Shown: positions 21,749-44,229 of the stretch, piece after piece
Layout: every line of letters begins with the position of its first letter
Position numbering within the stretch: position 1 is the stretch's first letter
Source: Candidatus Nanoarchaeia archaeon
GTDB taxonomy: Archaea; Nanobdellota; Nanobdellia; Woesearchaeales; GW2011-AR4
Reading direction: 5' to 3'
Length of the DNA stretch: 64,000 nucleotides
Assembly: GCA_035288865.1 (NCBI GenBank)
Contig: DATDZA010000026.1
Span: forward strand, 4,534 to 68,533
Notes under the pieces: model-generated
Told to the model about the DNA's origin: nothing
The model's database searches: none
Seen by the model: the letters and a program-made list of their open reading frames with translations, nothing else
Made by a program: the position numbers and the translations under genes

Positions 21749-24517
21749 GTGTTGAAAATTAACAATAAAAAGGTAGTCTGGACAATGGCCTTTTTAATAT
21801 TAAACATGATTTTCTTAACACTCGGCTCAGTTTTTGCTCAAGCACAAGTTAGCATAACAAGTGAAGGCGTGCCTCCTTTTATTCCTGGCACTCTTTGCGT
21901 TAATGCAAAAGATGGTTCCCAATTTCATACACACACGATAACAGCTAATAATCCCACATCTGATTTAACTTTTGAATTTGACGGGGCAATTTTTCACAGC
22001 AATGAGGCTGGATGCGACGTGACAGGAGAAGATCCAAGCATCACAGGCGGCTCAGTTAGTGGGAAAACTACTTATGGGCCTGGCGAATCTGGTTCTCTCC
22101 TTGCTATCTTTGATACAAATGCATTTAACTGCGGAAGGGTTCAATATGACATCGGCTTTAAATTACAAGGACAGCCTGGAGTTCTGCAGGGCAATTACCA
22201 AGGCCTGTTTTATGGAATAGTTGTTAATTATGGAGTTGACTGTACACTCTGCGGCAATGGTGTACTTGAAACTGGAGAGCAATGCGACAGTGGTTCTCAA
22301 AATGGCCAGCCTTGCACTCCAACCTATGGCAACACATGCAATTACTGCTCCTCATCCTGCACACCAGTTACCGTTACGGGACCAACATGCGGTGACGGTA
22401 CAGTTCAATCACCAGAGCAATGCGACAGTGGTTCTCAAAATGGCCAGCCTTGCACTCCAACCTATGGCAACACATGCAATTACTGCTCCTCATCCTGCAC
22501 ACCAGTTACCGTTACGGGACCAACATGCGGTGACGGAATTGTCAGTGGAAACGAGCAGTGTGATGATGGAAATTTAAATAATAACGACGGATGCTCATCA
22601 TCATGTCTACCTGAGTATGCGAGACTTACAGTTAATAAGCAGGTTATAAATAACAACGGGGGCACAAAAACTGCATCACAGTTCCTACTATTTATTGATA
22701 GTAGTTCCGTTACAAATGGAGTTATTAACTCTGTATCAGCCGGATCCCATACAGTAAGTGAAACCTTAGACCCAAATTATGCAAAAACAATTAGCGGCGA
22801 TTGCAATTCTTTGGGGCAGGTCACAGTTTCCTATGGCCAGTCAAAAACCTGCACAATAACCAACGATGACGTCCCTCCAAAAATTACAGTAACAAAAATA
22901 GTCATCAACAACAATGGTGGAACAAAAACAGTTTCCAACTTCCCTCTATTTGTCAATTCCATATCTGTAATATCAGGGGTTCAATATACATTTAATGCTG
23001 GCGTTTACACAGTAAGTGAAACCCAACAGTCAGGATACTCATCATCAATAACCGGCGACTGCAATTCAAACGGCCAAGTCACTTTAGGCATCGGCCAGTC
23101 AAAAACCTGTATTATTACAAATGATGATTTGCCATCGTGCGGAAATGGAATAGTTGAGCCGCCAGAGCAATGCGACGATGGCAACACAAATAATAATGAT
23201 CAATGCACTAATAATTGTATAAAAACAATATGTGGAGATGGAATTGTTCAAACTCCAAATGGCAATGGCCAAAACGAAGAATGCGACGATGCAAATACTA
23301 ATAACAATGATGGATGTAACAGCAACTGCATGAATCAGAAAATATTGACATGCGAGGAAGCAATCTCAATGGGCTTGATTAACGGATCAGTAAGCGGAGG
23401 AACTGCAACATTAACAAATAATGCAAATGTGGGATTTGACTTTGGTTTTGCATCTTACAAAATGATAGATGATATTATCGAAAACCAAGTGCTATTCGAT
23501 TCTAGCCTTAAGGCAGCAGGCCCACATCAAACTATAACTTTCAGCATAAATGTGCCTAACTGCAAATACCAAACGGACCTTTTCTGCGGACCTCTTGTGG
23601 TAAAGTTTGATGCACAGCATAATTACATCGGCAGGCTCATCGCATCAGAAATAGATGAAGGAGTCGGTGGATTTTGCAATGCAACCTCTTCGCCAGGATG
23701 CTTTAGCAGACTAAAAGACGCAGACGCAAATTGCAAGGGCGGGACAATAATTCAGGATACCGTTTACGGATGCCGCTCGATTAAATGTCAGAATGGACTA
23801 AACTCATTACAGATTTTGGCGTGCGATAAGCCTGGAGATCAGAACCCAACTTACTTTGAAATGTACAAGACGCAGCAAACTGGCAACGGGTTAGAAATTT
23901 GCCTAGGAGAAAAAACTTGCATAGCACACAACGGTTTCGCAAAAAGTTTAAACTACCCGATTTGTTCTAACGGAACCATCACAACTGCCGTTTGTGGAAA
24001 TAATGTAAAGGAATCAGGCGAATTGTGCGATGACGGAAATTTGAATAATAATGACGGATGTTCATCGACTTGTAAAATTGAGTCATGCGGCGATGGTACA
24101 AAGCAGGCTAGTGAACAATGCGATGACGGAAATTTGAATAATAATGATGGTTGCAATTCACAATGTAAAACTGAATCTTGTGGTGATGGTGTGAAACAAT
24201 CCAGTGAGCAGTGCGATGACGGCAACAATAATAATGGTGATGGATGCAGCAGCACATGCACTTCAGAAGGCAGTGGAACATGCTACAGCTCAGTTCAGAA
24301 CATACCGGCATCATGCAGCACAAGTGATATAACAACTGACACTTTTAACGGATGCAGGAAAATAATTTGTTCAGGCAAACAGGTGCTAGGATGCGACAAG
24401 GCCGGTTTCTTTGAAATGTATAATCAAGGGGGAAGTTCCTTGATACAAATATGCCTAGGAAATGCCTGCATGACTAATGAGGGATTTATAAAGAGCAAGA
24501 GTTTCCCAATTTGCTAG
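21749..24517 (+). CDS. secreted cysteine-rich repeat protein: 8 myxo-type CGDG...EQCDDGN..NDGC repeats, 2 NNNGGTKT beta-sandwich-like repeats and 2 copies of a novel 8-Cys module
   Basis: GTG 21749 gives the signal peptide MLKINNKKVVWTMAFLILNMIFLTLGSVFAQA. Alternative starts are ATG 21785 and the track TTG 21677. The CG[DN]G-x5-7-[EQ]CD[DS]GN-x3-[ND][DG][CQ] repeats resemble the Myxococcus cysteine-rich repeat / DUF4215 class. Confidence 0.75.
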   Translation: MLKINNKKVVWTMAFLILNMIFLTLGSVFAQAQVSITSEGVPPFIPGTLCVNAKDGSQFHTHTITANNPTSDLTFEFDGAIFHSNEAGCDVTGEDPSITGGSVSGKTTYGPGESGSLLAIFDTNAFNCGRVQYDIGFKLQGQPGVLQGNYQGLFYGIVVNYGVDCTLCGNGVLETGEQCDSGSQNGQPCTPTYGNTCNYCSSSCTPVTVTGPTCGDGTVQSPEQCDSGSQNGQPCTPTYGNTCNYCSSSCTPVTVTGPTCGDGIVSGNEQCDDGNLNNNDGCSSSCLPEYARLTVNKQVINNNGGTKTASQFLLFIDSSSVTNGVINSVSAGSHTVSETLDPNYAKTISGDCNSLGQVTVSYGQSKTCTITNDDVPPKITVTKIVINNNGGTKTVSNFPLFVNSISVISGVQYTFNAGVYTVSETQQSGYSSSITGDCNSNGQVTLGIGQSKTCIITNDDLPSCGNGIVEPPEQCDDGNTNNNDQCTNNCIKTICGDGIVQTPNGNGQNEECDDANTNNNDGCNSNCMNQKILTCEEAISMGLINGSVSGGTATLTNNANVGFDFGFASYKMIDDIIENQVLFDSSLKAAGPHQTITFSINVPNCKYQTDLFCGPLVVKFDAQHNYIGRLIASEIDEGVGGFCNATSSPGCFSRLKDADANCKGGTIIQDTVYGCRSIKCQNGLNSLQILACDKPGDQNPTYFEMYKTQQTGNGLEICLGEKTCIAHNGFAKSLNYPICSNGTITTAVCGNNVKESGELCDDGNLNNNDGCSSTCKIESCGDGTKQASEQCDDGNLNNNDGCNSQCKTESCGDGVKQSSEQCDDGNNNNGDGCSSTCTSEGSGTCYSSVQNIPASCSTSDITTDTFNGCRKIICSGKQVLGCDKAGFFEMYNQGGSSLIQICLGNACMTNEGFIKSKSFPIC
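22276..22536 (+). repeat. 138-bp-period tandem duplication inside the CDS; 123 bp are identical at the nucleotide level (22276..22398 = 22414..22536)
   Basis: Base-by-base comparison. Both copies encode EQCDSGSQNGQPCTPTYGNTCNYCSSSCTPVTVTGPTCGDG. Confidence 0.95.
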
Positions 24518-24535
24518 TTATAGTAAATTCATTCA

Positions 24536-24542
24536 TTTTTTT
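24536..24542 (+). terminator. oligo-T (T7) tract 19 nt after the stop codon
   Basis: Read directly. Archaeal termination typically occurs at oligo-T. Confidence 0.3.
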
Positions 24543-24850
24543 CACGTAGCATTATTCGTATTTCTTTGACCTAAAATGCCGCAAGCAATTTGGCTATTTC
24601 CTAAATTACGAAAAGAAAAATACTCACCGCTTTTAAATGGGCCAAATATGAGTTTTTTTAACCAAAGTGGGTATTTTGAGTAGTGAAAAAAACCGAAAGA
24701 TTTATAAATGAGGCAATTGTAAGCTTCACTAACTAATGTGGGAATTAGTGGGTAGTTTCGCTTATAACTCGGAGTAAATCAGTAAAATTTATATAGAAAT
24801 TCTGATTTGTAACTACTTATCTATGATAACATAATATTGGGGGATTATAA

Positions 24851-27800
24851 ATGAATCTAAAAATCAACTTATCTTGCAAAAGTAATGTTCGCCCTTTAAG
24901 AAACTTGGTGCTATTGTTGCTTTTAATAGTTACGGCAGCTCCAGTTTACGCGGATTTAGTCGCTGTTTCACAGTTAGGATACCACCCGAATTCTACAAAG
25001 CAAGTTATAATATACACAAATAGCAGCACAAGTTATACTTCAGCTGAATTAGTCGATGCAAACAACGCAAATATTGTTAAAACAATTTCACTTCTTAAAG
25101 CCAAAAATTATGGTGGCACGAATGTGGAATGTCAGGGAAACGCACCTTGTTATGTTGGGGATTTTTCAGACTTTATGGTGCAGGGCAGTTATTATTTTGA
25201 TATCTCTGGAATAAAATCTCCGACATTTAAGATAGACAGCCAAATATTTAAGGATAATACGCCCACACTTCTTGAATTTTTTGACGCAATGCTTCAGCAG
25301 AATTCAGCATACCACGGGGATTTTCATTCAAATTACCAGCCATCATTTAATGCCATGGCCGATGGAAGTTTTATCATGGAGGCAGATCAGGCATCGCTTG
25401 CCCTCATTAGGCTCGGAAGCGCTTATAGGAAAAATCCTACTTTGTTCACAGGAATTGACAATTATAATATCTTATCTGCAAATAAGCCCGATATGCAAGA
25501 ATACATTTTATCATATGTCGACTATCTTGAAGGATTGCAAGGGCTGGAACTAGAGGAACTGACAGATGGAACTGGTTTCAGACTGAACCCAAATGTTGAA
25601 GTTCAGAATATATTTGTTCCTGGTCCTACAAACTTAACAAACTTGACTGTTTATATCCCGGGAAGCTCCCATGCCATATTAAAATCAGATGTACCAGTGG
25701 TTTCCTTATGCGGAAATGATACGGGAACGGAATGGCAGAAATGTGTGGATGACGCTGCTTTCTATTTCAAATGCCAGATAGACGAACCGTGCCTTAATAT
25801 GACTTATATAGAAAAGACGGGAAAAGTCAAATCAACAAACAATGGATATGCCGTTTCCAGGGGCTGGGGTTATGAGTTTGGATGCTATGTGGATGTTGAT
25901 TTAAATAGTGACATGTTTGACAGCGAGCCAAATCCATGCATGGTATTTTACCCCGAGACTTCTAGGTCTTACGATGTTTATGCGCTTCTTGGATTTTTAG
26001 AATCAGTTCCTGCGGTAAATGATTATTCCTCAATTGAAGGGAATAGTTTGCTTGCAAGGTCCATTAACACATATAATCATATCAAAATAAATGACTCGGT
26101 ATTTTCAGCTAATGACCCAGATGCAGGATTTTTCGGAGCATCTTTATTTTTGCTGTACAATTACACAGCAAACGCTTCATATTTGTTAGAGGCTCATTCA
26201 CTTAAAGACATAGTTGGCACAAATTTTGAATCCGACCACACAAGGGGAAATGAGTTTTACTGGGAAGAATACATTAAAAACAAAAATAATCTGGAGAGCC
26301 GGGGGCTTCCATACCAAGTAAATGCTAAAAATCCCGAAGAATTTTTTACGGCTAAAATATTGTCTGATTATAGCGATTTGGGAGCAGATTCTATGTCGAA
26401 TAACGGAGAAAGGATATTTCAGTATAACAATAACATCCAATTTCAAAACAGCAGGTATATCTTACTTGAAGGGCTTTATGCAACTAAAGCTAATCAATTA
26501 CATCCATCTGCCGATCCGTTTGTTAAAGAAGTCGGAGACAGCCAGCTTTCTTGGCTGACCGGAATGAATTCTGTGCAGAACGGAACCGCAATTGGAAGCC
26601 CGACATTATCAATTAGTTTTATTTTTGGCATAGGAAATTTTCCACAGCAATACCATTCAAGATTGCTCTACGATTCAGGATACAAAAGTTCCAGCGGCGA
26701 CGAGATTATAGGAGTTAGAGGAACAAGCCTGCAGTTCCTTGATCCAGTTAATAACGAATATGTTTATCTGGACGGAATGCAAAATATTTTAGGAAAGTCC
26801 CTGGGAGCTTCGGGCAATAACTGGAGAAATGAAACACAAATTGAACCGTTTCACGTCGGAACTATATTTAACAACGACAAAAGCTACATTCCTGGATGGA
26901 TAAGCGGGCCATATGATACTGTTTCAGACCAAGATCTAATTTTTAATTACAGGGACAATCTTAACACGTATGAATTCACAGAAACAACAAATGAGATCGT
27001 TGCAACAGCAGTCGAGCTATTTGCGTATCTTGATGCCGGCTATAATAACAAACCCCAACATAATGGAATTTATGTGAGCCCGCAAGTAACTCAGAATGCA
27101 ACACTGACTTTTATTACCAATCCAGCGAGCTCAAATATTTATCTCAATAGCCAGTTTAAGGGAATGACCAATTCCTCTGGCATATTTATTTTGCAAAATG
27201 TAGGGCAGGGCAACTACTCTTTTAAAGTTAACAAGTCAGAATATTTCGCATATGAAAAAAATATTTCGGTTTTGGAAGGGATTAATGCAACCATTGACGT
27301 TAATCTGTCATTGATTCCGGTCGTTTTGCAAAATTCAAGCCTTCATGTAATTTCTAATGCAGATAGTATTCAAGTTTACTTAGATAATTTATTGTATGGC
27401 CTAACTAATGCAAGCTATGAAATAAATATTAATAATTTAGTTCCAGGCGATTATAATTTAACGCTTAAGAAAACAGAATATCTCGACAGAGATGTAATTA
27501 TTTCATTGGTATCCGGGCAAAATAATTCAATTGTTCTTAACTTAACCAATATAGTACAAAATGGCACTGTAACAATTACCACTAGCCCCAGCATTGCAGA
27601 TATTTACGTGAATTCAAGCCTTGTTGGCACAACAAATGCATCTGGAAATATATTTTTGAATCTTAATCCCGGAATTTATAGCATAAAGGCAGCAAAATCC
27701 AATTACGTTCCCTCAACAATTTTAGTGGAAATTCAGCAATCGGTAAATAAATTTGCAAATGTATCTCTTGATTTAGATAATACCGTATCAGTTGTTTCAA

Positions 27801-29368
27801 CTGTAACAAATTTAGATTCTGCAGCACAAAATAATATTTATGGCGTAAATTATTCCATGTACGAGCTTGATAATGCCTCATTTTATTTAAGCTTAAATAT
27901 TAACGATACTGTAGCATGGTACATAGATGACATTTTTCAGCAGTCCGAGCCAGGAATTAATTCAACTTTTTATTGGAAGCCTGGAATATTCTGGGCTCCA
28001 ATAGGTCCCGATTACTGGAATGTTCGGCCAGTAAATATTTCAGCAAGACTAACCAATATAAACTTGACCTGGACGGTTGGTGTAGAAGATTTGGTTAACC
28101 CTTATTTTACGGCAATAGATGATTCTTTAGACGTGTCAGGAACTTCTGATACAAAGGTTCATGTGCAAACCAATGATAAAAAAATTAATTTTACAGCTCT
28201 GAATATATCATTGAAAAATATAGAATCTGGCGTGATTAGAAATTTTGCTCTTAATCGCATGCCTGACAATGCTACCGGCGGAACAAACTGGGAATTATCA
28301 ATGGTAAACATCGATTACGGAAGCAATTTTTTAGTAAAAATATATGGCATTAACAATGTTTCCGGCTCGTCAGGAATCTATGAGTTAACTAATGAGAGGG
28401 GGCATTACAGAAATTTTCCTTCGCAAGATCAGCCAAGCGGAAGTGACTCCCCTTCCTCGGACAGCGGAAATGGTGGAGGCGGCAACGGCGATGCAGGAGC
28501 CCAGTCATTTGCTCCTCCGGAAATAATTTATGTAATACTCGATAAAGATACTGTTTTGCCAAATGAGGAGCAAACTGTTACACTGGATGCAAAATACCTG
28601 CCAAACGGAGTAAGTAGAGTTTCGGCGCTATTTTTGCCTCCATCTGGCACTTCAATAATTAAAGAGCTTAGCATAATAAAAGGAAAACCCAGCTATGGCA
28701 CTTGGTTCGCTAGTTTTTCTGCTTCAACTCCTGGATTATACAAACTTTATTCGATAAAACTGTGGACCGAGGATGCTAAAGACCCCCCCACCGAGATTTT
28801 AATTTCAGACAGGTCTTTTTATATTGCCGGTGAGAATGCGATAAATGAAGGAAATCTTGAATTGATATATGAAATTTTAAGTGAAAGCAATGTAAAAAAT
28901 GGAACCAAAGTGCTCCTAACACTTGATGCAAAAGATAAGATCGGCGTTGGGCGAATTAGCGCAAATATAAAATCAACAGGCGGGGAAAATTATGATATAG
29001 AATTGAAACTTTCAAAGGGAAGTAAAAACTACGGCACATGGTCGGGGGAGTTTTTGGCCTCACAGCCAGGAACAACATATTCAGTAGCTTCAGTAACAAT
29101 ATCAAACGGTAAGGAATCAAAGACTTATCAAATTAAAGACAGAAACGTTTACGTAAGCCAGACTTCAAGAATCAGCTCTCTTAATTCAATTACTGCAAAT
29201 ACTATTTCTAATGTGCAAAGATTTTCCGCGCAGTGGGTAGATGCCCTGCTTAAGCGGCCGTGGCTGCCAACAGCTATTGGATTTGGAACAGTGATTGTAA
29301 TGCTAACCTTAATATTTTTTGGCTCTCGATTTACAAAACAGTTCAGCAGATTTAGAAAGAAAAATTGA
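24851..29368 (+). CDS. membrane-anchored surface protein (1505 aa): CelD_N-like Ig domain, GH9-like (alpha/alpha)6 domain, 3 PEGA-like domains, 2 Ig-like repeats and a C-terminal TM anchor
   Basis: VSQLGYHPNSTKQVIIY (CelD_N-like). QLSWLTGMN..SFIFGIGNFPQQYHSR and IPGWISGPYD..TETTNEIVATAVELFAYL parallel GH9 C-terminal blocks. PEGA-like SNPASSNIYLNSQFKGMT..GNYSFKVNKSEY. C-terminal hydrophobic helix plus RFRKKN. Confidence 0.7.
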   Translation: MNLKINLSCKSNVRPLRNLVLLLLLIVTAAPVYADLVAVSQLGYHPNSTKQVIIYTNSSTSYTSAELVDANNANIVKTISLLKAKNYGGTNVECQGNAPCYVGDFSDFMVQGSYYFDISGIKSPTFKIDSQIFKDNTPTLLEFFDAMLQQNSAYHGDFHSNYQPSFNAMADGSFIMEADQASLALIRLGSAYRKNPTLFTGIDNYNILSANKPDMQEYILSYVDYLEGLQGLELEELTDGTGFRLNPNVEVQNIFVPGPTNLTNLTVYIPGSSHAILKSDVPVVSLCGNDTGTEWQKCVDDAAFYFKCQIDEPCLNMTYIEKTGKVKSTNNGYAVSRGWGYEFGCYVDVDLNSDMFDSEPNPCMVFYPETSRSYDVYALLGFLESVPAVNDYSSIEGNSLLARSINTYNHIKINDSVFSANDPDAGFFGASLFLLYNYTANASYLLEAHSLKDIVGTNFESDHTRGNEFYWEEYIKNKNNLESRGLPYQVNAKNPEEFFTAKILSDYSDLGADSMSNNGERIFQYNNNIQFQNSRYILLEGLYATKANQLHPSADPFVKEVGDSQLSWLTGMNSVQNGTAIGSPTLSISFIFGIGNFPQQYHSRLLYDSGYKSSSGDEIIGVRGTSLQFLDPVNNEYVYLDGMQNILGKSLGASGNNWRNETQIEPFHVGTIFNNDKSYIPGWISGPYDTVSDQDLIFNYRDNLNTYEFTETTNEIVATAVELFAYLDAGYNNKPQHNGIYVSPQVTQNATLTFITNPASSNIYLNSQFKGMTNSSGIFILQNVGQGNYSFKVNKSEYFAYEKNISVLEGINATIDVNLSLIPVVLQNSSLHVISNADSIQVYLDNLLYGLTNASYEININNLVPGDYNLTLKKTEYLDRDVIISLVSGQNNSIVLNLTNIVQNGTVTITTSPSIADIYVNSSLVGTTNASGNIFLNLNPGIYSIKAAKSNYVPSTILVEIQQSVNKFANVSLDLDNTVSVVSTVTNLDSAAQNNIYGVNYSMYELDNASFYLSLNINDTVAWYIDDIFQQSEPGINSTFYWKPGIFWAPIGPDYWNVRPVNISARLTNINLTWTVGVEDLVNPYFTAIDDSLDVSGTSDTKVHVQTNDKKINFTALNISLKNIESGVIRNFALNRMPDNATGGTNWELSMVNIDYGSNFLVKIYGINNVSGSSGIYELTNERGHYRNFPSQDQPSGSDSPSSDSGNGGGGNGDAGAQSFAPPEIIYVILDKDTVLPNEEQTVTLDAKYLPNGVSRVSALFLPPSGTSIIKELSIIKGKPSYGTWFASFSASTPGLYKLYSIKLWTEDAKDPPTEILISDRSFYIAGENAINEGNLELIYEILSESNVKNGTKVLLTLDAKDKIGVGRISANIKSTGGENYDIELKLSKGSKNYGTWSGEFLASQPGTTYSVASVTISNGKESKTYQIKDRNVYVSQTSRISSLNSITANTISNVQRFSAQWVDALLKRPWLPTAIGFGTVIVMLTLIFFGSRFTKQFSRFRKKN

Positions 29369-30978
29369 AAATGGGCATTCCAATTAAGAAACAAGGCTGG
29401 AAGCATTTAATGCTCTATTTAATTTTCGGATTAATGAGTTTTGTTCTTATGATGTATTATTTATCGAATACTTTGATTCATTTCACATCATCCCAGCAGT
29501 TCCCAATAAATTCGTTTAAGAGGTTTCCGCTGACTTTTTTGATTTTCCCGGCAGAATTATTTTCATTTTGCTTTGCAATGTACTTTGTTTATAATTTGTT
29601 TACTGATCGGTATAGAAATGAAAAACCTGAAGAGTTGCTAAATAAATCTAGCATTAGAGTTGCCGTTCTAATCCCGGTTTACAATGAACCAAGGGAAATT
29701 GTAGAGAGAACAATTGCAGCATGCAAAAAATTAATCTGGCCTGGGGGTGTTAGGATTTATTTGCTCGATGATTCTTCCAGCGAGGAGGATATGGCAAGTA
29801 TGAAAATTTTATCCAAATATTACGGCTGTATGCTGGTAAGAAGGAGTGACAGGACTGGCTTTAAAGCAGGAAATATAAACAATGCGATAAAAAATGCAGT
29901 AAGAGAGGAATATTTTGTGGTTTTCGATTCAGATCAGGCTCCTGAGCCAAAATTTTTAGAGGAAGTAATGGATTACTTTAGCAACATTTCCGTCGGATTT
30001 GTGCAAACGCCTCAGCATTTTATTAATGTCACAACGCCGCTGGAAAGGGCAGCTAAGATTGGAACGGATATTTTTTATAATTCGCAATGTGTAAGTAAGG
30101 CCCACGATGGAGCGTTGCCATTTTGTGGAACCAATGCTGTTATAAGGACTTCGGCCTTTTTGTCTGTAAACGGCTTTTCGTATTTCTCATCCACGGAAGA
30201 TATTGAGCTTGGCCTTAGGTTGAATTCAGTTGGATACTTTGGCATTTATGTTCCAAAAATACTAGTATACGGCTACGCGCCTCCAGATTTTGTCGCATAT
30301 TCATCACAGCAGTACCGGTGGGCAAATGGGAATCTGGCAATTTTAAGAGAGCATTGGAAAAAAATTTTGTTTGGAAAATTTAACCTAAGGCAGCAAATTC
30401 ATACAGTTTTTACTTTGGGATGGTGGGTCATAGGTATTGTAACTTTAATTTATGTGATAGTTCCAATACTTTCATTACTATTGGGCGGAACCCATCATAC
30501 ATGGCTGCCAACGACATTGCTTCTGCTTTTATTTCTAAATGTTGTTACCGGCATAAGCATGATTTATTTTTCACAGCATGCACGAAATGACAATGATAAA
30601 ATAAGAATTTCAGATGCATTCTTACAGTATAGTCTGATAACCAATAGCATGTTTATTTACATTAAGGCGGCAATAAACGTGCTCCTTGGAAGATATGTGG
30701 GATTTATTAGAACAAATAAAAAAAGGACACAATCAGGATGGTGGAAAATAAAGTGGAACTTATTATTGTCAGCAATATGCTTTGGATTTAGCACTTTTGC
30801 ATTATACCATGCTGCAATTTCTAGTGATATGCAGCAGATAAGGACCTATCTTCCCGTATCGATTTGGCTTTTATTCTACAGTGTCATGCTTGCAAGCTCA
30901 ATTATATTTGTCGGATACGATTTACCAAAGAAAAATGAAAAACCACGCTTGGGCACGAAAGGTGTTTCAATTGGGTGA
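29365..30978 (+). CDS. processive family-2 beta-glycosyltransferase, cellulose-synthase (BcsA/CelA)-like, without a PilZ domain
   Basis: VLIPVYNEP, LLDDSS, VVFDSDQ, FCGTNAVIR, TED (30193..30201), QQYRW (30307..30321). TM helices both N- and C-terminal. The start is either the TTG at 29365 (4-nt overlap with the upstream gene) or the ATG at 29371. Confidence 0.85.
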   Translation: MKMGIPIKKQGWKHLMLYLIFGLMSFVLMMYYLSNTLIHFTSSQQFPINSFKRFPLTFLIFPAELFSFCFAMYFVYNLFTDRYRNEKPEELLNKSSIRVAVLIPVYNEPREIVERTIAACKKLIWPGGVRIYLLDDSSSEEDMASMKILSKYYGCMLVRRSDRTGFKAGNINNAIKNAVREEYFVVFDSDQAPEPKFLEEVMDYFSNISVGFVQTPQHFINVTTPLERAAKIGTDIFYNSQCVSKAHDGALPFCGTNAVIRTSAFLSVNGFSYFSSTEDIELGLRLNSVGYFGIYVPKILVYGYAPPDFVAYSSQQYRWANGNLAILREHWKKILFGKFNLRQQIHTVFTLGWWVIGIVTLIYVIVPILSLLLGGTHHTWLPTTLLLLLFLNVVTGISMIYFSQHARNDNDKIRISDAFLQYSLITNSMFIYIKAAINVLLGRYVGFIRTNKKRTQSGWWKIKWNLLLSAICFGFSTFALYHAAISSDMQQIRTYLPVSIWLLFYSVMLASSIIFVGYDLPKKNEKPRLGTKGVSIG

Positions 30979-35512: not shown

Positions 35513-38500
35513 ATGAATGCAAATAAAGGCAATTTTTATTTTAGTGGTTTACAGAATATAATTTTGTACTCTGTACTTATAGCCTTATCGTTTGTTTTAA
35601 TTTCAAGCCCTATTTTTGCTCAAGGAAGCCAGGGAGTGATCGTAAGGGTTACAGGCTTTGATCCAGTTACTAACGTATACAATTTTTCCTGCATAACGCC
35701 AGCCAAAACGCCTGCAAGTAATATGGCAAATGAAAAGTATTTTGACATTGATCCCAATCCATCATTTTATCCAAAAAAATATAATTTAAGGTCTCCTGAT
35801 GATAATGTAACATGGCACCTTGACCCTTTAAATTTTACAGAAGAGGTCCATAGTAACGCAATGTATCACATTTATTGTGAGATACAAAATTTTACAGCGC
35901 CAAACGGTTCTCAAAATTTAGCTTCTGAATTTCATGTTGATTTGCGGACAACCCACAATCAAAAAGAGCCAAACATTTATGTAATTGATTCTGAAGGTCC
36001 GAGAGTAACGCTAAAATGTGACCCGCCGCCTGGTGTAAAAAGGTATTCCATAAATTGGAAGCTAAGGGAACGGGGAAACACTATTTCTTATCCACAACTG
36101 GCCGACAAAAGAATTGTTAATATTACAACTCCAAGGTCTACGGCCGGATGGGATGTTGTATGCGACGTTACAGACAAAGACACAGGCAAATTTTCCACAT
36201 GGGATATGCCAATTGAGTTTTTTCCAAGTGGGCCGGCATATATTCCGACTATTGAGGGTTGCGTCGCTAACGAGCCATGCACCTGGGCCCCTAATATTAA
36301 CGGAGTTCCTTTGAATGGAAGTTTAATTGTTAATGTAACTCTTAATTCATCTCCTGCGGTGGTAAACTTATACATAAATGAGGTTTTCAAGGGCACTACA
36401 ACTCTCTCTGGATTCTTAACCATACAAAACATTACACCGGGCCTTCATAATTTAGTTATTAAAAAAGCCGGTTACGAAGAGATAAGCACTTTAATTCCCA
36501 TTGCATCCGGCAAAGAATTATACAGGAATTATTCCATAAGCGAGAATGTAAGTGAGCCGGTAACTTCGCAATGCTTTAATTCTGTTTCCACAATTCCAGC
36601 AAACTGCACTTCTGGAACTTTCATAACCGATTCTGCAAGTGGAAACTGTAGAACTCTGGTGTGTTCAAATGGTAGCTCGAGCATGCAGATTCTTTCATGC
36701 GACAAACCTGATAATTTGACGACGAAACAATTTTTCGAGCTATATAAACAATCCAAAGTTGGAACGGCTGTAACTCAAATATGTATTGGAAATACGTGCA
36801 TCAAAGACGGCGGATATGCAAAAAGCGATAATTTTCCGATATGTGTGGGAAATGCAACATCGCAAGGGCCCTTTAACGGCAGTCTTAGGGTTTCGACGAA
36901 TCCAAATCTTGCTGACATATATCTTAACGGCGCCTTTATAGATAACTCCGGGCTTATTGGTTTGCTAACCATTAATAATTTAATTCCGGGAAATTATCAA
37001 TTGCTTGTGAATAAGACGGACTATAAACCCAATTTAAGCCAGGTAATAATTGCAGCCGGTCAGCTTAAGGATGTTCAAATAAATTTAGTCCCAGAATCTT
37101 CACCGTCCAATACAACTGAAAATAATGCAACTAACTCAACAAATACGAACGTTACAACAAATGTAACTACAGTTTGTTTTTCTTCATTATCGACCTTGCC
37201 AGTAAATTGCAGCGGGGGAATTATTATGCAAAATGGATCTTCTGGCAACGGCAGAACAATTGTATGCACAAACGGGACAGACAGCATGAAAGTTCAGGGA
37301 TGGGAAAAGCCAGACAGCGGTGTAAAACAATATTTTGATTTGTATAAGCAATCGCAAGTTGGTTCAACAAAATTCCAGATATGCATAGGCACAACTTGCA
37401 TTAAAGACGGCGGATACGCAAAAAGCACGAATTATCCAATATGCATGAATCAAACAACACAAACGAACCCAACACCCCCCGTATCAATTCAAAATGCATC
37501 TTTAAATATTACAACAGTCCCATCAATAGCTGACGTTTATTTAAACGCAGTACTATTAGGAACAACTGATTCGAGCGGAAATTTAATAGTTAAAAATATT
37601 ACACCAGGAAACTATAATTTAATGGTAAAAAAATCAAATTACATTGATAACAGCAGCTCAATAATATTAAATCCGGGACAAAATTTATCGCTGAATAGAA
37701 CTTTGGCTCAGAGTACGAATAATCCTGTAAATGTAGATTCTTCAAAAGAAGTATTTGTTAGAATTGTGTCAGCAGATCCAGCAACGAGAACATACACTTT
37801 TAGCTGCAGGACCTATCCTGAAACTCCATTTGTTAAGGACTGGTTTATACGGCCGGATGATGGTGATAGTTTTTTTGACGATCCTGAAGAGAATATAACC
37901 CAAGATCTGCCTTCAAATGAATTCTTCACTTATACATTCAAGAATAACACGTTTTATCATATTAGTTGCCTTGTAGTTAATAGCTCAAATTTTAGTGATG
38001 TTGAAAGAGGAGATGTTCATATCGACCTAAGAAATTATTCATGGAATCCGCAAGTTGTCCCTCTAAGCGGAGACGGATTAACTGCTTCATACGAATGCAG
38101 ATATAACAGTTCAGATTATAATGTAGAATGGCAAATGTTTAATGCTGAAACCAATCAGTATAGCCAATTGGGTACAAATAAGATAATAACTTCAACAGTA
38201 CCGACCTCCGGAAATTATGATTATTTTTGTAACGTTAACGGGCAGAGTTTTAGGACAGGTTTGCCAATTGAATACTTCGACCAGGGAGCTCCTTATTTCC
38301 CGGATAAATTTGGAATTCCAGATGGAATAAAGCATGTATGGGTAAGAAATAATACAGCAAACAAACATAGTAAAGAACCAGTTATTGTAAGAGTTACAAA
38401 TTATAACTCCACTAAAAGAAATTATTCATTCTCATGCAACGTTGCAGTAAATGGTTTTACGACTCAAAAGCATTGGACTATAAGGGCAGGAGTTCCACAA

Positions 38501-41350
38501 GCTGATGCTCTATTTGACACTGAATCAAATCAAATATCGTATATATTAAATAAGGACGTTCTATATCATATTGGATGTGAAATTAACAATATCTCGAATT
38601 TCTCTCATGTTATCAGGGGAGATTTTCACGTTGAAAGAACTCTTCAAAGAAATTTTAGTTTGCCTGAAATCAACGTGCTTGATTCGAATGGATTATATTC
38701 AAGGCTTCAATGCAATCTTCCGACAAATATAACAAATTATGATTTGAGATGGAGATTAATTAATTACGAGCTGGATAATGAATTAAGCCAGTTTAATAAT
38801 AAATTAGTCATAAATTATACATTACCGTACGCCGGCTTATGGGATTATTCATGTATAGTTGACAACTTGGATGATTCAAATATACCGGAACAAATGATTT
38901 ATCCAATAGAATATTTCGATTCTGGTCCAGCTTATGTTCCAAATGAAAACGGTTGTGTTCCAAATGAGCCATGTCCATGGAAAAATCAAAACAATCAATC
39001 TAATGCAACAGGAACAAACACCCCACCTCAAGCACCAACTTGGCTTGAACCTTCACAGAATAAGATGAATATGGATCCTGTAGATTTCCACATACATGTA
39101 TTTCCAATGGTGGATGTAGAAAATGATGCCCATGTAGCTAGTGATTTTGAGATTTGGGATAATGAGTCAAACCAAAGAGTTTGGAGTTCACTGTACAATA
39201 AAGTTATACGAGAGCATATACATAATGCTGATGGAACATTTGAAGGGAGTTTATCAGGCAATAACAAATTACTTTCAAACCATAGCTATCAAGTAAGAGC
39301 ACGGTTTTATGAAAACGCGCCGATAAATAACATTAGCAATTGGAGTGAATGGAGATATTTCAAAACTAAGGCTCCATTTACCATTTCAAGTAATTTTAGC
39401 TGGACTGCCCAGCCTGGATATAAGATAGAGAAAGTTGCGTCCAACATTAGCTTTCCAGTAAATATCTATATGGCGCCTGACCTCTATTCACATCTTCCAG
39501 AAGGGGAACAACCGCTTCTTTACGTAACTCAGCTTTACGGCCAAATTGGAATGATCAAGAAAAACGGACAATATGTTCCCTATGCCACAAATTTATTGAA
39601 TTATCCACCAGGTGTACTTCCAGGAACTGGTGAATCTGGAGTCGTAGGATTGTATGTTGATGATTTAACAGGTGACCTTTTCGTGAGTTTGGTTTATATG
39701 ACCCCTAATGGTGTATTGAGGGGAAAAGTCGTTAAGTTCGTGACAAACAATGATGGAAACACTTTCGTAAATAACATGACCATACTTAACAACATATCAG
39801 TTGATTTTTCACATCAAGTACAAAGCATAACAAGAGGTCCTGACGGAAAGCTATATTTGAATACAGGAGACGCAAATACGCTAACTAATTATACATTAGG
39901 AGAAGGCACTAGCCTCAGCGCGACTAAGGATGTGACACAACTACAAGGCAAGGTCTTGAGATTCAATGAAGATGGTAGTATACCTGTTGACAATCCATAT
40001 CCAGGAACATATACTTATGCAGGAGGCTTTAGAAATCCTTTTGGGGCAGCTTGGCGCCCTGTAGCTAATGAGCTTTTTGTCACAAACAATGGAGCTGATT
40101 CAAATGATGGTATCTATCAAGTTAAACCTGGCGATATTTATGGGCATTGCTGCGATACAGCAACTGGAACTTGGCATCTTTGGCCTAACACCACCGCTCC
40201 AACCCAAGCTGTATTCAATCCTGGAATTGTTGGATTTCCGCACGATACTCATGGCAATTTATTTGTAGCTTTGTCCGGACCGACTTATAAAGAAGGACCC
40301 GACCCTGAAGGTAAAAAGATAGTCAAATTTACTTTTCAACCAAATGGAAGTCGTGGAACTGTTGAAGATTTTGTTGTTTATACAGGAACAGGCTATAGCG
40401 CCCCTATTGGTCTTGCTTTTGGTGAAGATGGGTTATATTTTACAGATATTTATGGAAAATTAGGAATAACTGATTGGCCAGTTACAAGCGGAAATATTTT
40501 TAGAGTTGTTCTTGGAGATCAAACAGAAGATCCAGACCCTACAACTACATTTATTGCAGCATTGGCGCCGAAACCATGGTATCCAAAATATCTTGATGTT
40601 GTATGGGAATGCAAGACAAGTGGAGGGAGCGGCAGTTACTCATACAGTTATTATTTTGGGGATGGGCAAACTCAGCTGAACTATAATCAAGATAATACAG
40701 AACATATCTATTCTGCGTCAGGAACTTACGCTGCAAATTGCAGTGTTTTCGATTTAATTACATTCAAAACAACTATCGCAAAAAATACAATAACCCTACA
40801 ATCAAATTCACCTCCCCCTCCTCCATCAACCCAAGCAAATGGCTCACTTCAAGTTAATTCAATACCCAACTTTACAAATATATTCCTTGACAATGTGCCT
40901 AAGGGGTTTACTGACGTAAACGGACAATTGTTACTTAAAGACCTCCTACCACAAAATTATAATTTAAAACTTACAAAAACTAATTATCAAGACTCTTCAT
41001 CAATAATTAACATATTATCAAACCAGACTTTGATATTTAATGTAACTCTTAACAAAGTGAGTAGTTCGAATTGTTATTCAAGTGTTGTTGACATACCTCA
41101 GAGTTCCATATCTTGTGCAGGGGGTACGATAACAACTGACAATCCAAGTGGCAGTTGCAGGACACTAATATGCAGCGACAGTGGAAACAGCATGCAGGTA
41201 ATGGCATGCAACAAGCCCGACTCAGGAGATCCGTTAAATTTTGAGATGTACAAGCAAGGAACTACCGGAAGCGGCATCACGCAGATATGCATAGGAACAA
41301 CATGTATAGCCGATGGCGGATATGCCAAAAGTTCTGATTTGTGTACTTGA
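35513..41350 (+). CDS. giant secreted multidomain protein (1945 aa): 3 copies of an unknown module of about 190-220 aa, 4 PEGA-like domains, 3 novel 8-Cys modules, a glucose/sorbosone-dehydrogenase-like beta-propeller and a PKD domain
   Basis: Signal peptide. The propeller region (about 39395..40520) has GKVLRFNEDGSIPVDNPYP...GGFRNPFGAAWRP...DGIYQVKPGDIYG. PKD-like YYFGDGQT..HIYSASGTYAANCSVFD. Many N-x-S/T sequons. Confidence 0.8.
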   Translation: MNANKGNFYFSGLQNIILYSVLIALSFVLISSPIFAQGSQGVIVRVTGFDPVTNVYNFSCITPAKTPASNMANEKYFDIDPNPSFYPKKYNLRSPDDNVTWHLDPLNFTEEVHSNAMYHIYCEIQNFTAPNGSQNLASEFHVDLRTTHNQKEPNIYVIDSEGPRVTLKCDPPPGVKRYSINWKLRERGNTISYPQLADKRIVNITTPRSTAGWDVVCDVTDKDTGKFSTWDMPIEFFPSGPAYIPTIEGCVANEPCTWAPNINGVPLNGSLIVNVTLNSSPAVVNLYINEVFKGTTTLSGFLTIQNITPGLHNLVIKKAGYEEISTLIPIASGKELYRNYSISENVSEPVTSQCFNSVSTIPANCTSGTFITDSASGNCRTLVCSNGSSSMQILSCDKPDNLTTKQFFELYKQSKVGTAVTQICIGNTCIKDGGYAKSDNFPICVGNATSQGPFNGSLRVSTNPNLADIYLNGAFIDNSGLIGLLTINNLIPGNYQLLVNKTDYKPNLSQVIIAAGQLKDVQINLVPESSPSNTTENNATNSTNTNVTTNVTTVCFSSLSTLPVNCSGGIIMQNGSSGNGRTIVCTNGTDSMKVQGWEKPDSGVKQYFDLYKQSQVGSTKFQICIGTTCIKDGGYAKSTNYPICMNQTTQTNPTPPVSIQNASLNITTVPSIADVYLNAVLLGTTDSSGNLIVKNITPGNYNLMVKKSNYIDNSSSIILNPGQNLSLNRTLAQSTNNPVNVDSSKEVFVRIVSADPATRTYTFSCRTYPETPFVKDWFIRPDDGDSFFDDPEENITQDLPSNEFFTYTFKNNTFYHISCLVVNSSNFSDVERGDVHIDLRNYSWNPQVVPLSGDGLTASYECRYNSSDYNVEWQMFNAETNQYSQLGTNKIITSTVPTSGNYDYFCNVNGQSFRTGLPIEYFDQGAPYFPDKFGIPDGIKHVWVRNNTANKHSKEPVIVRVTNYNSTKRNYSFSCNVAVNGFTTQKHWTIRAGVPQADALFDTESNQISYILNKDVLYHIGCEINNISNFSHVIRGDFHVERTLQRNFSLPEINVLDSNGLYSRLQCNLPTNITNYDLRWRLINYELDNELSQFNNKLVINYTLPYAGLWDYSCIVDNLDDSNIPEQMIYPIEYFDSGPAYVPNENGCVPNEPCPWKNQNNQSNATGTNTPPQAPTWLEPSQNKMNMDPVDFHIHVFPMVDVENDAHVASDFEIWDNESNQRVWSSLYNKVIREHIHNADGTFEGSLSGNNKLLSNHSYQVRARFYENAPINNISNWSEWRYFKTKAPFTISSNFSWTAQPGYKIEKVASNISFPVNIYMAPDLYSHLPEGEQPLLYVTQLYGQIGMIKKNGQYVPYATNLLNYPPGVLPGTGESGVVGLYVDDLTGDLFVSLVYMTPNGVLRGKVVKFVTNNDGNTFVNNMTILNNISVDFSHQVQSITRGPDGKLYLNTGDANTLTNYTLGEGTSLSATKDVTQLQGKVLRFNEDGSIPVDNPYPGTYTYAGGFRNPFGAAWRPVANELFVTNNGADSNDGIYQVKPGDIYGHCCDTATGTWHLWPNTTAPTQAVFNPGIVGFPHDTHGNLFVALSGPTYKEGPDPEGKKIVKFTFQPNGSRGTVEDFVVYTGTGYSAPIGLAFGEDGLYFTDIYGKLGITDWPVTSGNIFRVVLGDQTEDPDPTTTFIAALAPKPWYPKYLDVVWECKTSGGSGSYSYSYYFGDGQTQLNYNQDNTEHIYSASGTYAANCSVFDLITFKTTIAKNTITLQSNSPPPPPSTQANGSLQVNSIPNFTNIFLDNVPKGFTDVNGQLLLKDLLPQNYNLKLTKTNYQDSSSIINILSNQTLIFNVTLNKVSSSNCYSSVVDIPQSSISCAGGTITTDNPSGSCRTLICSDSGNSMQVMACNKPDSGDPLNFEMYKQGTTGSGITQICIGTTCIADGGYAKSSDLCT

Positions 41351-41427
41351 CTAAGTATTAAGTTAATGGAACAACCGTAACCAAGAAAACTACTTTTAGA
41401 ATATTTAACTAATTGTGATAAAATTAT

Positions 41428-44229
41428 TCATCCAAATTTTCTTAGCACAAAGAAAATTATTAAAAATAAAGATATGAACCCTACTGGTATTATTGCAAGA
41501 AGTGGGCTCAATTTGTCACTTGCTTTTTGATAAGTTATGCCTGCCACTTTTTGTAAGTCAGCAACAACAGGTGCCGTCGTTATTAATTTAATTCCGCTTT
41601 TCGTATTGGCTACAAAATCATTTGACATTGCATAGACTGTACTAAAACTTGCAATTTCCCCAGAATCCGGAAGCTTTACTAAGTATACTATAAACGGGCT
41701 GGGGTCAATTGCTGTAAACTCCCATATCAATGCCCTACCGTTCTGAAAAAATTTTAAAGTGTTGCTGGATTCATCGGCACCCACAACTGACCAGTCAGTA
41801 ATTATTGCCCCTTCTGGCAAGAGCTCATTAATGATAACTTTTTCATTTTGCCTTACATTGTTTAAAGCAAGTCGTATCGGGACAAGTTGGCTGTAACCTG
41901 CTACACTTGGCAGATCTCTAATTAACTCATTTGCCCAATTACCGGAAGATGGCTCACCTAGATTTTCGTTAGCTGATTCTAATGATTGTTCGGCTTGAAA
42001 TGAATCCACAATACTGGGTACTGCAAATCCGGAGCCTCCTGAGCCGCCAGATGATTGCGAAGAATCCTGATTTGTCCTTTCAGGAGCCGAGGGGCTTGCT
42101 GACGGCTCTTCTATTTCTTCTGTAGGTTTTGGGATGTTACAAATACTTCCCTCATCAATTTCATTGTTGCAATTGTTGTCAATATTATCACATACCTCTG
42201 GAGAGGGTTTGCATACCGGTACTGTTGGCTCGCACACATTCCCTTCGTCAATTTGCCCGTCGCAGTTGTTATCGGTGCCATCACATACCTCTGTCAAGGG
42301 AACACAAGCCTTTTTCGAGCTTGAACCGAGGGAGAACTTGGAAAAACCGTAACTCTCATTTACACATCCTTGATCTAAACAAACTTTGAAAATTGCGTTA
42401 GCCGGCGCAATCTGTCTGTACATTTCAATTATCCCCCCCTTGTCACACCCTTGAACTTTCAATTTCCCTTGTGATGACTCGTATTGTATGGTTCTACAGA
42501 CTCCGGAAGATACATCGCTTGTAAGTGTGCAGAGCTCATTGTTGACGAAGCAGGATTGGGACAAAGAAGCAATTGATAAATCAGAATTTACAGAACACAC
42601 ATTCCCTTCGTCAATTTGCCCATTGCAGTTATTATCTTTTTTATCGCATATCTCAATTAAAGGAGTGCAGGTACTTTGTGGTGAACATACGTTGTTTTCA
42701 TCAGCCTGGTTATTACAATTATTGTCCTTGCCGTCACAAATCTCATCTGCAGGTAAGCAGCTAGGCGGAGTTTGGCAAATATTGTTTTCATCAATTTGTC
42801 CGTTGCAATTATTGTCTATTCCGTCACAAGTTTCGGTTGCTGGTACGCATGGATTAGGCAAGGAATTGGTATTTGTAAAAACACTTGAGTCTCTTCCTAT
42901 TCCAAATCCTAGGGCTCGTACAGCAAACGCTTTGGTATAGATACCATAACAGGGTTCATTGTCCCAGACATTAGATTTATAGTGTTTTAGTGCGTTATCA
43001 AGCGTTGGCTGGAACAACGCTGTATTGTAGCCAGATTCAAACAATGCTTGGAGCCCTTGGTAATAATAACCGCCTATTGCAGATGATGCCGCACTTCCAT
43101 CGCTATTGTATTGCAAAACTACACTATTACTATTGGAGCCGTACTTGTCTCCCCATATTTTACAGTAGTTGTCAAGACCGGGAAGTTGAAAGTTAATTAG
43201 CTTTGCATAATAATTGGCCTGACACATTCCCAGTGCCCTCGGGGCATCAGCGAAATCCCACCGGTCCGGACTGCAGGTATTTGTACAGAGAGCTTTAGGA
43301 ACCGGACCGGAAAGGTCCCATTTAAAGCTTCTTCCTGGAGGCACACTAAATTTTACGCCATCAAATTTTGCCGCCTGAAGATAATTAAGAGTTAGGTGCC
43401 TTGAAACATCGCAATATTTTTGATTTGAAGTTTGCTTGCATGCCATAAGCATAGCAATAATAGCATCGGCATAATATCCGGTGTACCCATAGTCAGTGCT
43501 TGCCAGACCACCTTTTTTAGCCTGAGAGCCAGCTGCAAGCCAATAACAAATATCCCCATATCCAAGGTCGCTGTTCCTGCAATTCTGATCAATTTCATAC
43601 GAAAGCATGTCAGAAGAAAGCTGATTTGCGAGCGCCAGGTAACTATTTTTGCTGTCAGAATTTAAGAAATATTGATTATTTGCTGCAGTATAGAGTGCAA
43701 TTATAATTCTTGCGGTAGCATCTGAGGCAGTATCACAGTTGCCGTTGACGCCGGATTTGCAAGGCTCTAATGAATTTGCATTTCTATAAATTCGCCATGC
43801 AGGAATGCTTCCAAAATTACTCTTTATTGAGCCTACAGTATTATAGAATTGATCCATTCTCTGTTGGTTTTTAGACATGGAAACAAGTATTCCAACTTGG
43901 CTGAATTCATCAGTTACCATACAGTTATGTTCATAATCTATTACGGAGCCAGAGTTGCACCCTGAACCACTTTTAAGGTCGGCTAATTCACATTTTGAGC
44001 TGGATGAATACCAAGGTATCCACATTTTATTATCCACACTCGTTACAACCTTGTTGTTTGCAAACAAGGTATTAACCAGGTCTTCGTAGTTATCATTCCT
44101 GGATTTGGAATCAAATCCTATGCTATCCGGATTCATCAAGGATGCATGGGCATAACTTGCTAGCAGCACTATAATTAGTATCAAAACCACACTGTTTGTA
44201 AAAAAAGCCTTCTTTCCCATTTTTGGCAT
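41428..44229 (-). CDS. secreted/anchored protein (933 aa): GH8-like N-terminal domain, 5 MopE-type CDGxDNNCNGQIDE repeats, 1 novel Cys module, S/G-rich linker and a C-terminal TM anchor
   Basis: TDEFSQVGILVSM, IPAWRIY and TASDATARIIIALYTA (43684..43728) parallel the BcsZ/GH8 blocks SEGQxYGML, LPAW and ASDADxxIAxAL. The C-[VLKT]-P-x3-[EI]-CD-x-xDNNC-[ND]-x-[QE]-x-DE repeats were read directly. Confidence 0.7.
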   Translation of the reverse strand: MPKMGKKAFFTNSVVLILIIVLLASYAHASLMNPDSIGFDSKSRNDNYEDLVNTLFANNKVVTSVDNKMWIPWYSSSSKCELADLKSGSGCNSGSVIDYEHNCMVTDEFSQVGILVSMSKNQQRMDQFYNTVGSIKSNFGSIPAWRIYRNANSLEPCKSGVNGNCDTASDATARIIIALYTAANNQYFLNSDSKNSYLALANQLSSDMLSYEIDQNCRNSDLGYGDICYWLAAGSQAKKGGLASTDYGYTGYYADAIIAMLMACKQTSNQKYCDVSRHLTLNYLQAAKFDGVKFSVPPGRSFKWDLSGPVPKALCTNTCSPDRWDFADAPRALGMCQANYYAKLINFQLPGLDNYCKIWGDKYGSNSNSVVLQYNSDGSAASSAIGGYYYQGLQALFESGYNTALFQPTLDNALKHYKSNVWDNEPCYGIYTKAFAVRALGFGIGRDSSVFTNTNSLPNPCVPATETCDGIDNNCNGQIDENNICQTPPSCLPADEICDGKDNNCNNQADENNVCSPQSTCTPLIEICDKKDNNCNGQIDEGNVCSVNSDLSIASLSQSCFVNNELCTLTSDVSSGVCRTIQYESSQGKLKVQGCDKGGIIEMYRQIAPANAIFKVCLDQGCVNESYGFSKFSLGSSSKKACVPLTEVCDGTDNNCDGQIDEGNVCEPTVPVCKPSPEVCDNIDNNCNNEIDEGSICNIPKPTEEIEEPSASPSAPERTNQDSSQSSGGSGGSGFAVPSIVDSFQAEQSLESANENLGEPSSGNWANELIRDLPSVAGYSQLVPIRLALNNVRQNEKVIINELLPEGAIITDWSVVGADESSNTLKFFQNGRALIWEFTAIDPSPFIVYLVKLPDSGEIASFSTVYAMSNDFVANTKSGIKLITTAPVVADLQKVAGITYQKASDKLSPLLAIIPVGFISLFLIIFFVLRKFG

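Follow-up and report, generated by a model that had tools for sequence, protein, structure and literature searches.

Within a 64,000-nucleotide stretch of a Candidatus Nanoarchaeia archaeon genome (assembly GCA_035288865.1, contig DATDZA010000026.1, forward-strand positions 4,534 to 68,533; hereafter the window), three genes for secreted proteins flank an operon for a putative glucan synthase, and all three encode a cysteine-rich module of approximately 90 residues. By interval translation and a six-frame hidden Markov model (HMM) search of the window, we recovered exactly six copies of this eight-cysteine module in three proteins with a signal-like N-terminus: three in the open reading frame of a 1945-aa protein, two in that of a protein with DUF4215 repeats and one, on the minus strand, in that of a 933-aa protein (Table 1). 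The copies align over approximately 90 columns with 27–59% identity to the first copy, and their domain E-values range from 2e-38 to 6e-28, with the next-best match in the window at E = 0.86. As the first HMM was made from the six copies themselves, a control for circularity was run, in which an HMM of foreign six-cysteine domains alone recovered all six (minus-strand copy at 5e-28, the rest at 4e-6 to 2e-11); an HMM of canonical domains alone scored the minus-strand copy at 44.5 bits.

Cysteines are numbered here from the reference copy at 36572..36844 (C1 = 1, C2 = 12, C3 = 26, C4 = 31, C5 = 43, C6 = 71, C7 = 76 and C8 = 91). Translation placed glycine at C3 and tryptophan at C5 in the second copy of the 1945-aa protein, and tyrosine at C4 with no C8 in the minus-strand copy. 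The module ends the first two host proteins (...FPIC in gene 1 and ...SDLCT in gene 2, each followed by the stop), and a hydrophobic, signal-peptide-like start was found in all three. An original prediction, made from the nucleotide sequence alone, had claimed six copies in these three genes, the two cysteine-depleted variants, the extreme C-terminal placement in two of the proteins, the secretion of the hosts and their position around the glucan-synthase operon, and each of these was borne out. The names given to the hosts at NCBI are only "DUF4215 domain-containing" and "PEGA domain-containing".

AlphaFold2 modelled the isolated 91-aa module, from a 105-sequence alignment, as eight beta-strands and one short helical turn (predicted local distance difference test, pLDDT, 96.2; predicted template modelling score, pTM, 0.85). 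Foldseek searches with this model found no PDB structure at E ≤ 0.001 (best E 1.1, with a query template modelling score, TMq, of at most 0.34 among the 50 best matches listed) and no neighbour in BFVD (best E 0.3, TMq at most 0.44 among the 50 best matches listed); going by the predicted model, the fold is possibly new relative to both databases. Sequence libraries gave the same picture. The six copies alone produced only noise against Pfam at E ≤ 10 (12–15 bits against cutoffs of 24.8–27), the 105 family members matched no Pfam family significantly and no NCBIfam family, and a sequence profile search of the PDB with the module returned nothing significant (best E 1.7). No description of the module was found in the literature on cysteine-rich or disulfide proteins of DPANN and Woesearchaeota, on cellulose synthase or on carbohydrate-binding modules (CBMs), nor by searching with motif strings. 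The earlier statement that the module belonged to no recognizable family therefore stands for Pfam, NCBIfam and PDB sequences, as well as for structural relatives in the PDB and BFVD.

Table 1. Module copies, host genes and neighbouring features of the window
Feature	Position	Strand	Basis and remarks
Module copy 1 of the 1945-aa protein, canonical eight-cysteine form	36572..36844	+	aa 354-444; translation, HMM 139 bits
Module copy 2 of the 1945-aa protein, six-cysteine variant without C3 (G) and C5 (W)	37175..37444	+	aa 555-644; translation
Module copy 3 of the 1945-aa protein, extreme C-terminus, stop one residue later	41072..41344	+	aa 1854-1944; translation, HMM
Module copy 1 of the DUF4215-repeat protein	23699..23965	+	translation, HMM
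Module copy 2 of the DUF4215-repeat protein, shorter 78-aa form with all eight cysteines, extreme C-terminus	24281..24514	+	translation, HMM
Divergent six-cysteine "type a" module in the GH8-fold protein; C4 replaced by Y, C8 absent, N-terminal cysteine pair remodelled	42337..42555	-	aa 559-631
Host gene 1 (HLC60746.1, 910 aa): signal peptide, DUF4215/myxo cysteine-rich repeats, two modules	21785..24517	+	longest open reading frame from 21677
Host gene 2 (HLC60752.1): signal peptide, three copies of a second repeat of ~200 aa, four PEGA, GSDH beta-propeller, PKD, three modules	35513..41350	+	domain scans
Host gene 3: signal peptide, GH8-fold domain, MopE-like cysteine repeats, one type-a module, C-terminal transmembrane helix	41428..44229	-	scans, AlphaFold2, Foldseek
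GH8-like (alpha/alpha)6 domain of host gene 3	42865..44139	-	AlphaFold2 pLDDT 96.7; Foldseek
CelD_N and PEGA protein, C-terminal transmembrane segment (aa 1472-1490), no module	24851..29368	+	domain scans
GT2, BcsA/CelA-like processive glycosyltransferase	29365..30978	+	Pfam GT2 families; TIGR03030 E 1e-51, below cutoff
770-aa membrane protein, ~10 transmembrane segments, no family	30881..33193	+	transmembrane prediction, synteny
GH8 endoglucanase homologue, best match BcsZ	33194..34447	+	family scans
Second repeat of ~200 aa, copy 1	35624..36298	+	aa 38-262 of the 1945-aa protein
Second repeat of ~200 aa, copy 2	37742..38302	+	aa 744-930 of the 1945-aa protein
Second repeat of ~200 aa, copy 3	38381..38980	+	aa 957-1156 of the 1945-aa protein

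A profile search run exhaustively over 1.84 billion cluster representatives identified 236 proteins at E ≤ 1e-3, including 206 at E ≤ 1e-10 and 88 at E ≤ 1e-30. The family analyses reported here rest on the best 150 of these 236 matching proteins, which together with the three window proteins comprise 325 domains in 153 proteins, at one to six copies per protein. The module is an autonomous, all-beta extracellular domain of approximately 75–95 residues, representing a previously uncurated family. A word-indexed protein search returned a single match (P0001) when given the six copies and no match when given the alignment of 105 sequences, against the 236 of the exhaustive search; k-mer prefilters readily overlook families of this kind.

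Named sources and genome titles were almost all Candidatus Woesearchaeota or Nanoarchaeia metagenome-assembled genomes, and the window itself encodes the archaeal ribosomal proteins S19e and L31e, Cbf5 and FtsZ. The family is thus largely restricted to the Woesearchaeota/Nanoarchaeia within the DPANN archaea, which are mostly episymbionts. The GC content of module-bearing loci spanned 0.33–0.72. At its upper end, a Woesearchaeota locus (L011, GC 0.69) is archaeal, as it encodes deoxyhypusine synthase, whilst a contig labelled Acidobacteria (L009, NCBR01000057.1, GC 0.72) carries one module copy at 10001..10270 among bacterial neighbours, namely genes for a sigma-54 response regulator/activator, a histidine kinase and an ABC transporter. 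This occurrence, which reflects either horizontal transfer or a chimeric contig, means that the family is not confined strictly to archaea. The weakest locus of the genome scan, from Clostridium (L018, E 3e-4), had no HMM match and is a false positive. In L011, genes for a DsbD_TM/CcdA-like membrane protein and a thioredoxin-like/Redoxin protein (2905..4765, minus strand) adjoin the module gene (4873..7389), an arrangement that would suit extracytoplasmic disulfide formation or isomerisation.

The pattern of cysteine loss across the family provides a map of the probable disulfides. For this purpose 314 domains were classified by flank-aware detection of the terminal cysteines, and state changes were counted on trees of these short domains built by the unweighted pair group method with arithmetic mean. 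C3 and C5 were both present in 282 domains, both absent in 31 and singly lost in one (phi 0.98), with joint loss accounting for approximately 17–18 changes on the tree and spread over 20 proteins; the usual replacements, glycine for C3 and tryptophan for C5, are those seen in the second copy of the 1945-aa window protein. The pair also gave by far the strongest coupling in direct coupling analysis (DCA), and residues 26 and 43 lie side by side on adjacent strands of the predicted hairpin of beta3 (26–33) and beta4 (36–45). The C3–C5 disulfide, first suggested from that single window copy, is therefore strongly supported. C6 and C7 (residues 71 and 76) are likewise hairpin neighbours, rank 19th of the listed pairs in DCA and are jointly lost in the two copies of P0081.

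The four remaining cysteines were resolved differently from the original prediction, which had paired C4 with C8 from their joint absence in the minus-strand copy. Loss of C4 corresponds to three changes on the tree, essentially one ancient event, and marks out 50 domains as a divergent subfamily ("type a"), with tyrosine, phenylalanine or tryptophan in the place of C4 and no C8. In 77% of type-a domains the second cysteine lies at profile column 15, compared to column 12 in canonical domains, and the spacing from C2 to D20 is four residues rather than seven; 11 type-a domains have neither N-terminal cysteine. Because the type-a N-terminus is remodelled in this way, the minus-strand window copy says little on canonical pairing. 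Where canonical domains retain C2 and C4, C1 and C8 were both present in 212, both absent in 24 and apparently singly lost in 11, of which at least eight, on inspection, merely have a cysteine shifted by 1–3 residues. Counted by flank windows, the class that keeps C2 and C4 without C1 and C8 comprises 22 domains from 14 proteins, falling into seven sequence clusters at 55% identity. Conversely, of 32 domains missing both C1 and C8, C2 and C4 were both present in 22 and both absent in eight, so that 30 of the 32 are concordant.

DCA pointed the same way, with 1–90 ranking third (a coupling that end gaps of the local alignment can inflate), columns 9 and 88 also coupled and 12–31 at approximately 42nd, whereas neither 31–90 nor 1–12 was among the 45 strongest couplings. 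Given the joint loss of C1 and C8 with C2 and C4 retained, together with these ranks, the C4–C8 pairing was rejected and C1–C8 with C2–C4 is favoured, with good though incomplete confidence. The predicted secondary structure, in which C3–C5 and C6–C7 are hairpin neighbours, fits both this arrangement and C1–C2 with C4–C8, and one domain, in P0057, has neither C1 nor C2 yet retains C4 and C8, at odds with the favoured connectivity. Judged from covariation, the four disulfides are most likely C1–C8, C2–C4, C3–C5 and C6–C7. A C1–C8 bond would join the two ends of the domain, a feature to be expected of a portable unit arrayed along multidomain proteins.

Besides the cysteines, six polar or aromatic positions are strongly conserved in canonical and type-a domains alike: D20 (0.90 and 0.94, respectively), R27 (0.97 and 1.00), K45 (0.96 and 0.96), E56 (0.97 and 0.98), Y58 (0.93 and 0.98) and the aromatic Y/F82 (0.96 and 0.98). 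These positions are mutually coupled in DCA, and such a cluster of near-invariant residues would suit a candidate binding site.

The genes between and beside the hosts point to the synthesis and hydrolysis of a glucan. The GT2 enzyme has the UDP-forming cellulose synthase CelA/BcsA as its best match, below the equivalog cutoff, and has no PilZ region; the GH8 homologue, the CelD_N and PEGA protein and a YtkA-like protein also belong to the cluster. The 770-aa membrane protein, whose annotated GTG start overlaps the GT2 gene by approximately 100 nt and whose true start may lie later, has orthologues of 48–60% identity directly between GT2 and GH8 in two other loci (L002 and L008), and an orthologue lies directly upstream of GH8 in a third (L014), which begins inside the gene. 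This protein may serve the synthase as a partner not previously recognised. In the CelD_N and PEGA protein, residues ~130–740, after the CelD_N Ig-like domain, matched no family and might form a divergent GH9-like catalytic domain. Elsewhere in the window, a block at 3565..13867 on both strands encodes GH15, amylo-alpha-1,6-glucosidase (GDE_C), glycogen synthase, a GT4/GT5 starch-synthase-like enzyme and GH57, consistent with glycogen or alpha-glucan metabolism.

Glucan-related architecture extends to the third host. Its N-terminal 425 aa (of 933) had no Pfam, NCBIfam or PDB-sequence match and were modelled by AlphaFold2 as an (alpha/alpha)6 barrel (pLDDT 96.7), for which the top Foldseek matches were the GH8 endoglucanases CelA (1is9/1cem), CMCax (1wzz) and BcsZ (E 1e-8 to 1e-7). 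Searches of PDB sequences and profiles with this GH8-fold domain, the CelD_N region and the 770-aa membrane protein gave no match. The GH8-fold domain belongs to a sequence-divergent family of 72 unnamed proteins, mostly Woesearchaeota/Nanoarchaeia where a source is named, whose C-termini alternate between cysteine modules, a transmembrane helix and a conserved "...LRxYY" tail. The glycan cluster is syntenic in other Woesearchaeota loci (L002, L008, L014, L017, L001/L005, L004 and L007), and the module is borne by different cluster proteins in different genomes; it occurs, for example, on the CelD_N protein in L001, L002, L004, L006, L007 and L017, though not in the window.

Across the family, the module is carried by secreted proteins that rarely have a membrane anchor. 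Of 145 complete members, 117 have a signal-like hydrophobic N-terminus and three a C-terminal transmembrane helix, whilst 53 have the module at their extreme C-terminus and 49 have one that begins among residues 1–60, in many cases directly behind the signal peptide. Partner domains in 58 scanned members were all extracellular or glycan-related, and included PKD (24), PEGA (11), GSDH (9), MopE-like repeats (9), CelD_N (7) and DUF4215 (6), in addition to LamG, CARDB, Ig_3, malectin and a single cohesin. The second repeat of approximately 200 aa in the 1945-aa protein (Table 1; identity between copies 30–32%, start "V.VRV...DP.T..Y.F.C") also occurs in 26 of the 153 module-family proteins examined, with no Pfam match covering it.

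Alternation between module and membrane anchor was seen among orthologues of the GH8-fold protein. Modules were found in 35 of 66, none of which has a transmembrane helix, whilst 13 of the 66 lack modules and have a C-terminal transmembrane helix instead (Fisher p = 1e-5); on a tree, this pattern requires at least 10 changes of state. The module lies at the very end in 30 of the 35, usually as two type-a copies. The CelD_N protein alternates likewise, having a transmembrane segment and no module in the window, and two to three modules without a transmembrane segment in the orthologues of L001, L002, L004, L007 and L017. Terminal modules therefore seem to replace the membrane anchor, suggesting retention by the binding of something at the cell surface.

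Our preferred reading, held tentatively, is that the module is a non-catalytic unit of surface retention and binding, which would attach to a polymer of the envelope or matrix and so hold secreted proteins without a membrane anchor at the cell surface; the likeliest ligand would be the cellulose-like beta-glucan product of the adjacent BcsA-like GT2/GH8 cluster, or else an envelope glycan, and several copies would provide avidity in the manner of CBMs or SLH anchors. A polysaccharide is put forward because of the glucan synthase and hydrolase context, which also strengthens the putative carbohydrate-binding or adhesion role raised in the original prediction, a role that is plausible. Several observations weigh against this reading. 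The GH8-fold protein of the window carries both a module and a transmembrane anchor, and many family members have the module mid-protein or right after the signal peptide, rather than only at the C-terminus. The PDB profile search and Foldseek detected no similarity to a CBM, lectin or anchor domain of known structure, and the conserved charges might instead belong to a network of structural salt bridges inside the domain. Further, the synteny sample is small, comprising 17 loci from approximately 10 genomes that were selected via the module itself. A more far-reaching proposal, which we regard as doubtful, is that the module has a genuinely new fold and constitutes a lineage-specific, disulfide-stapled retention device of the Woesearchaeota, replacing membrane anchors by way of the cell's own cellulose-like exopolysaccharide or of a host envelope glycan.

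Terminal position, multiple copies and exclusivity with membrane anchors would fit any mechanism of surface retention equally, including one in which the module is a protein–protein adhesion or assembly unit whose partner, on a host cell or on the cell's own S-layer or scaffold, is recognized in the manner of dockerin and cohesin rather than through a glycan. Typical adhesin domains co-occur with the module (PKD in 24 of 58 members, CARDB, Ig_3, LamG and one cohesin), and cell–cell attachment is a generally known trait of the lineage (PMC8407392). Nevertheless, the concentration of the module in, and its shuffling among, proteins of a glucan synthase and hydrolase cluster points to a polysaccharide partner, no candidate receptor domain co-varies with it, and candidate-site residues that are near-invariant across organisms as diverse as the range of locus GC implies (0.33–0.72) argue against recognition of variable host proteins, leaving this explanation unlikely. 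Less probable again is a purely structural role, as a spacer or stalk, stapled by disulfides and resistant to proteases, that holds catalytic and adhesive domains away from the cell and has no ligand of its own. Four disulfides in approximately 90 residues, internal positions between PEGA, DUF4215 or MopE repeats, a variable copy number, short linkers (median 48 residues) and the apparent adjacency of the termini, as deduced from C1–C8, would all suit a spacer, whereas conservation above 90% at six non-cysteine polar or aromatic positions in both subfamilies, at an overall identity of only ~27%, is rare in spacers, and the replacement of a membrane anchor by a terminal module in orthologues indicates retention, not mere spacing.

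The module could also bind metals or take part in redox chemistry, for example as a copper or electron-transfer accessory to the neighbouring MopE-like motifs and the PQQ-type GSDH domain. Cu-binding_MopE motifs and GSDH each occur in nine of the 58 scanned members, one member is labelled "plastocyanin" at source, and the DsbD_TM and thioredoxin-like genes of L011 adjoin the module gene. This role is highly improbable for the module, however, as its cysteines are lost strictly pairwise, in the way of structural disulfides and not of metal ligands, no conserved histidine, methionine or free cysteine was found in it, and the need for disulfide formation or isomerisation explains the thiol-oxidoreductase neighbours equally well.

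DPANN genomes are very small, yet here approximately 25 kb is devoted to large secreted proteins around a cellulose-synthase-like operon, an investment that bears on how these uncultured cells form a surface and adhere to matrices or hosts. The alternation of module and anchor offers a concrete hypothesis for the retention of exo-enzymes in Woesearchaeota, mediated by a domain that occurs in at least 236 protein clusters and is invisible to Pfam and NCBIfam. The domain is small and should be easy to express, and the paired cysteine losses provide a disulfide map useful for that purpose and for structure determination. If binding is confirmed, the module would represent a new family of CBM or anchor type and a metagenomic marker of this surface system; if it is indeed a lineage-specific retention device, it would organise a layer of extracellular enzymes and adhesins, and possibly episymbiotic attachment, in genomes of approximately 1 Mb.

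Among known cysteine-rich domains, the nearest resemblance was to SVWC (von Willebrand factor type C-like, PF15430), an arthropod and viral family whose members are likewise small, extracellular and equipped with eight cysteines. Nine of the 105 family members gave sub-threshold matches in the C3–C5 region (best E 0.0045, without correction for multiple tests); in the window, the C-terminal copy of the 1945-aa protein, for example, reached 14.7 bits against a cutoff of 27, over profile positions 15–50 of 66, or approximately 35 residues. No structure of von Willebrand factor type C was present among the Foldseek PDB matches of the module, and identity with SVWC was rejected on the sub-threshold scores and short span, the resemblance most likely being one of cysteine spacing only. 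The DUF4215/myxo_disulf_rpt (TIGR02232) and MopE-like repeats are cysteine-rich and extracellular like the module and occur in the same proteins, but span 30–47 profile positions with another cysteine pattern; their matches lie outside the module, which scores with none of them. No dockerin match was obtained and no cohesin or dockerin structure appeared in the Foldseek output, cohesin being a separate domain in one family member only.

In deployment, the module is closest to SLH anchors and CBMs. SLH anchors, as exemplified by the SLH-bearing glycoside hydrolase Cel5I (PMC4976890), are terminal, repeated modules on signal-peptide proteins without a membrane anchor, an arrangement matched by the numbers given above (117 of 145 signal-like, three with a transmembrane helix and 53 ending in the module) and by the exclusivity of module and transmembrane helix among orthologues. 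SLH domains differ in being mainly helical, cysteine-free and bacterial, and have no homology to the module; PF00395 was not matched in any family scan. Membership of an existing CBM family was not supported either, by a comparison that covers CBMs with solved structure (PDB profile best E 1.7; no Foldseek PDB match at E ≤ 0.001), and unlike CBMs the module has four disulfides and occurs in essentially one archaeal lineage. In other respects the module resembles CBMs such as CBM2, CBM3 and CBM4_9 on glucanases. It is discrete, non-catalytic, beta-rich and approximately 90 residues long, is found singly or repeatedly at the ends of secreted GH8-fold, CelD_N and GSDH proteins, lies in a polysaccharide gene cluster and has conserved aromatic and polar residues. 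In the terms by which CAZy defines CBMs, it is contiguous within carbohydrate-active proteins, being fused to the GH8-fold domain in the window, to CelD_N in orthologous loci and to GSDH, malectin or LamG in other members, and its confidently predicted model and many architectures suggest a discrete, independently folding unit. One GH8-fold orthologue without a module carries CBM_4_9 (PF02018) in its place. Overall, we rate the module as a new family, restricted by lineage, within an already familiar class, that of putative accessory extracellular binding modules.

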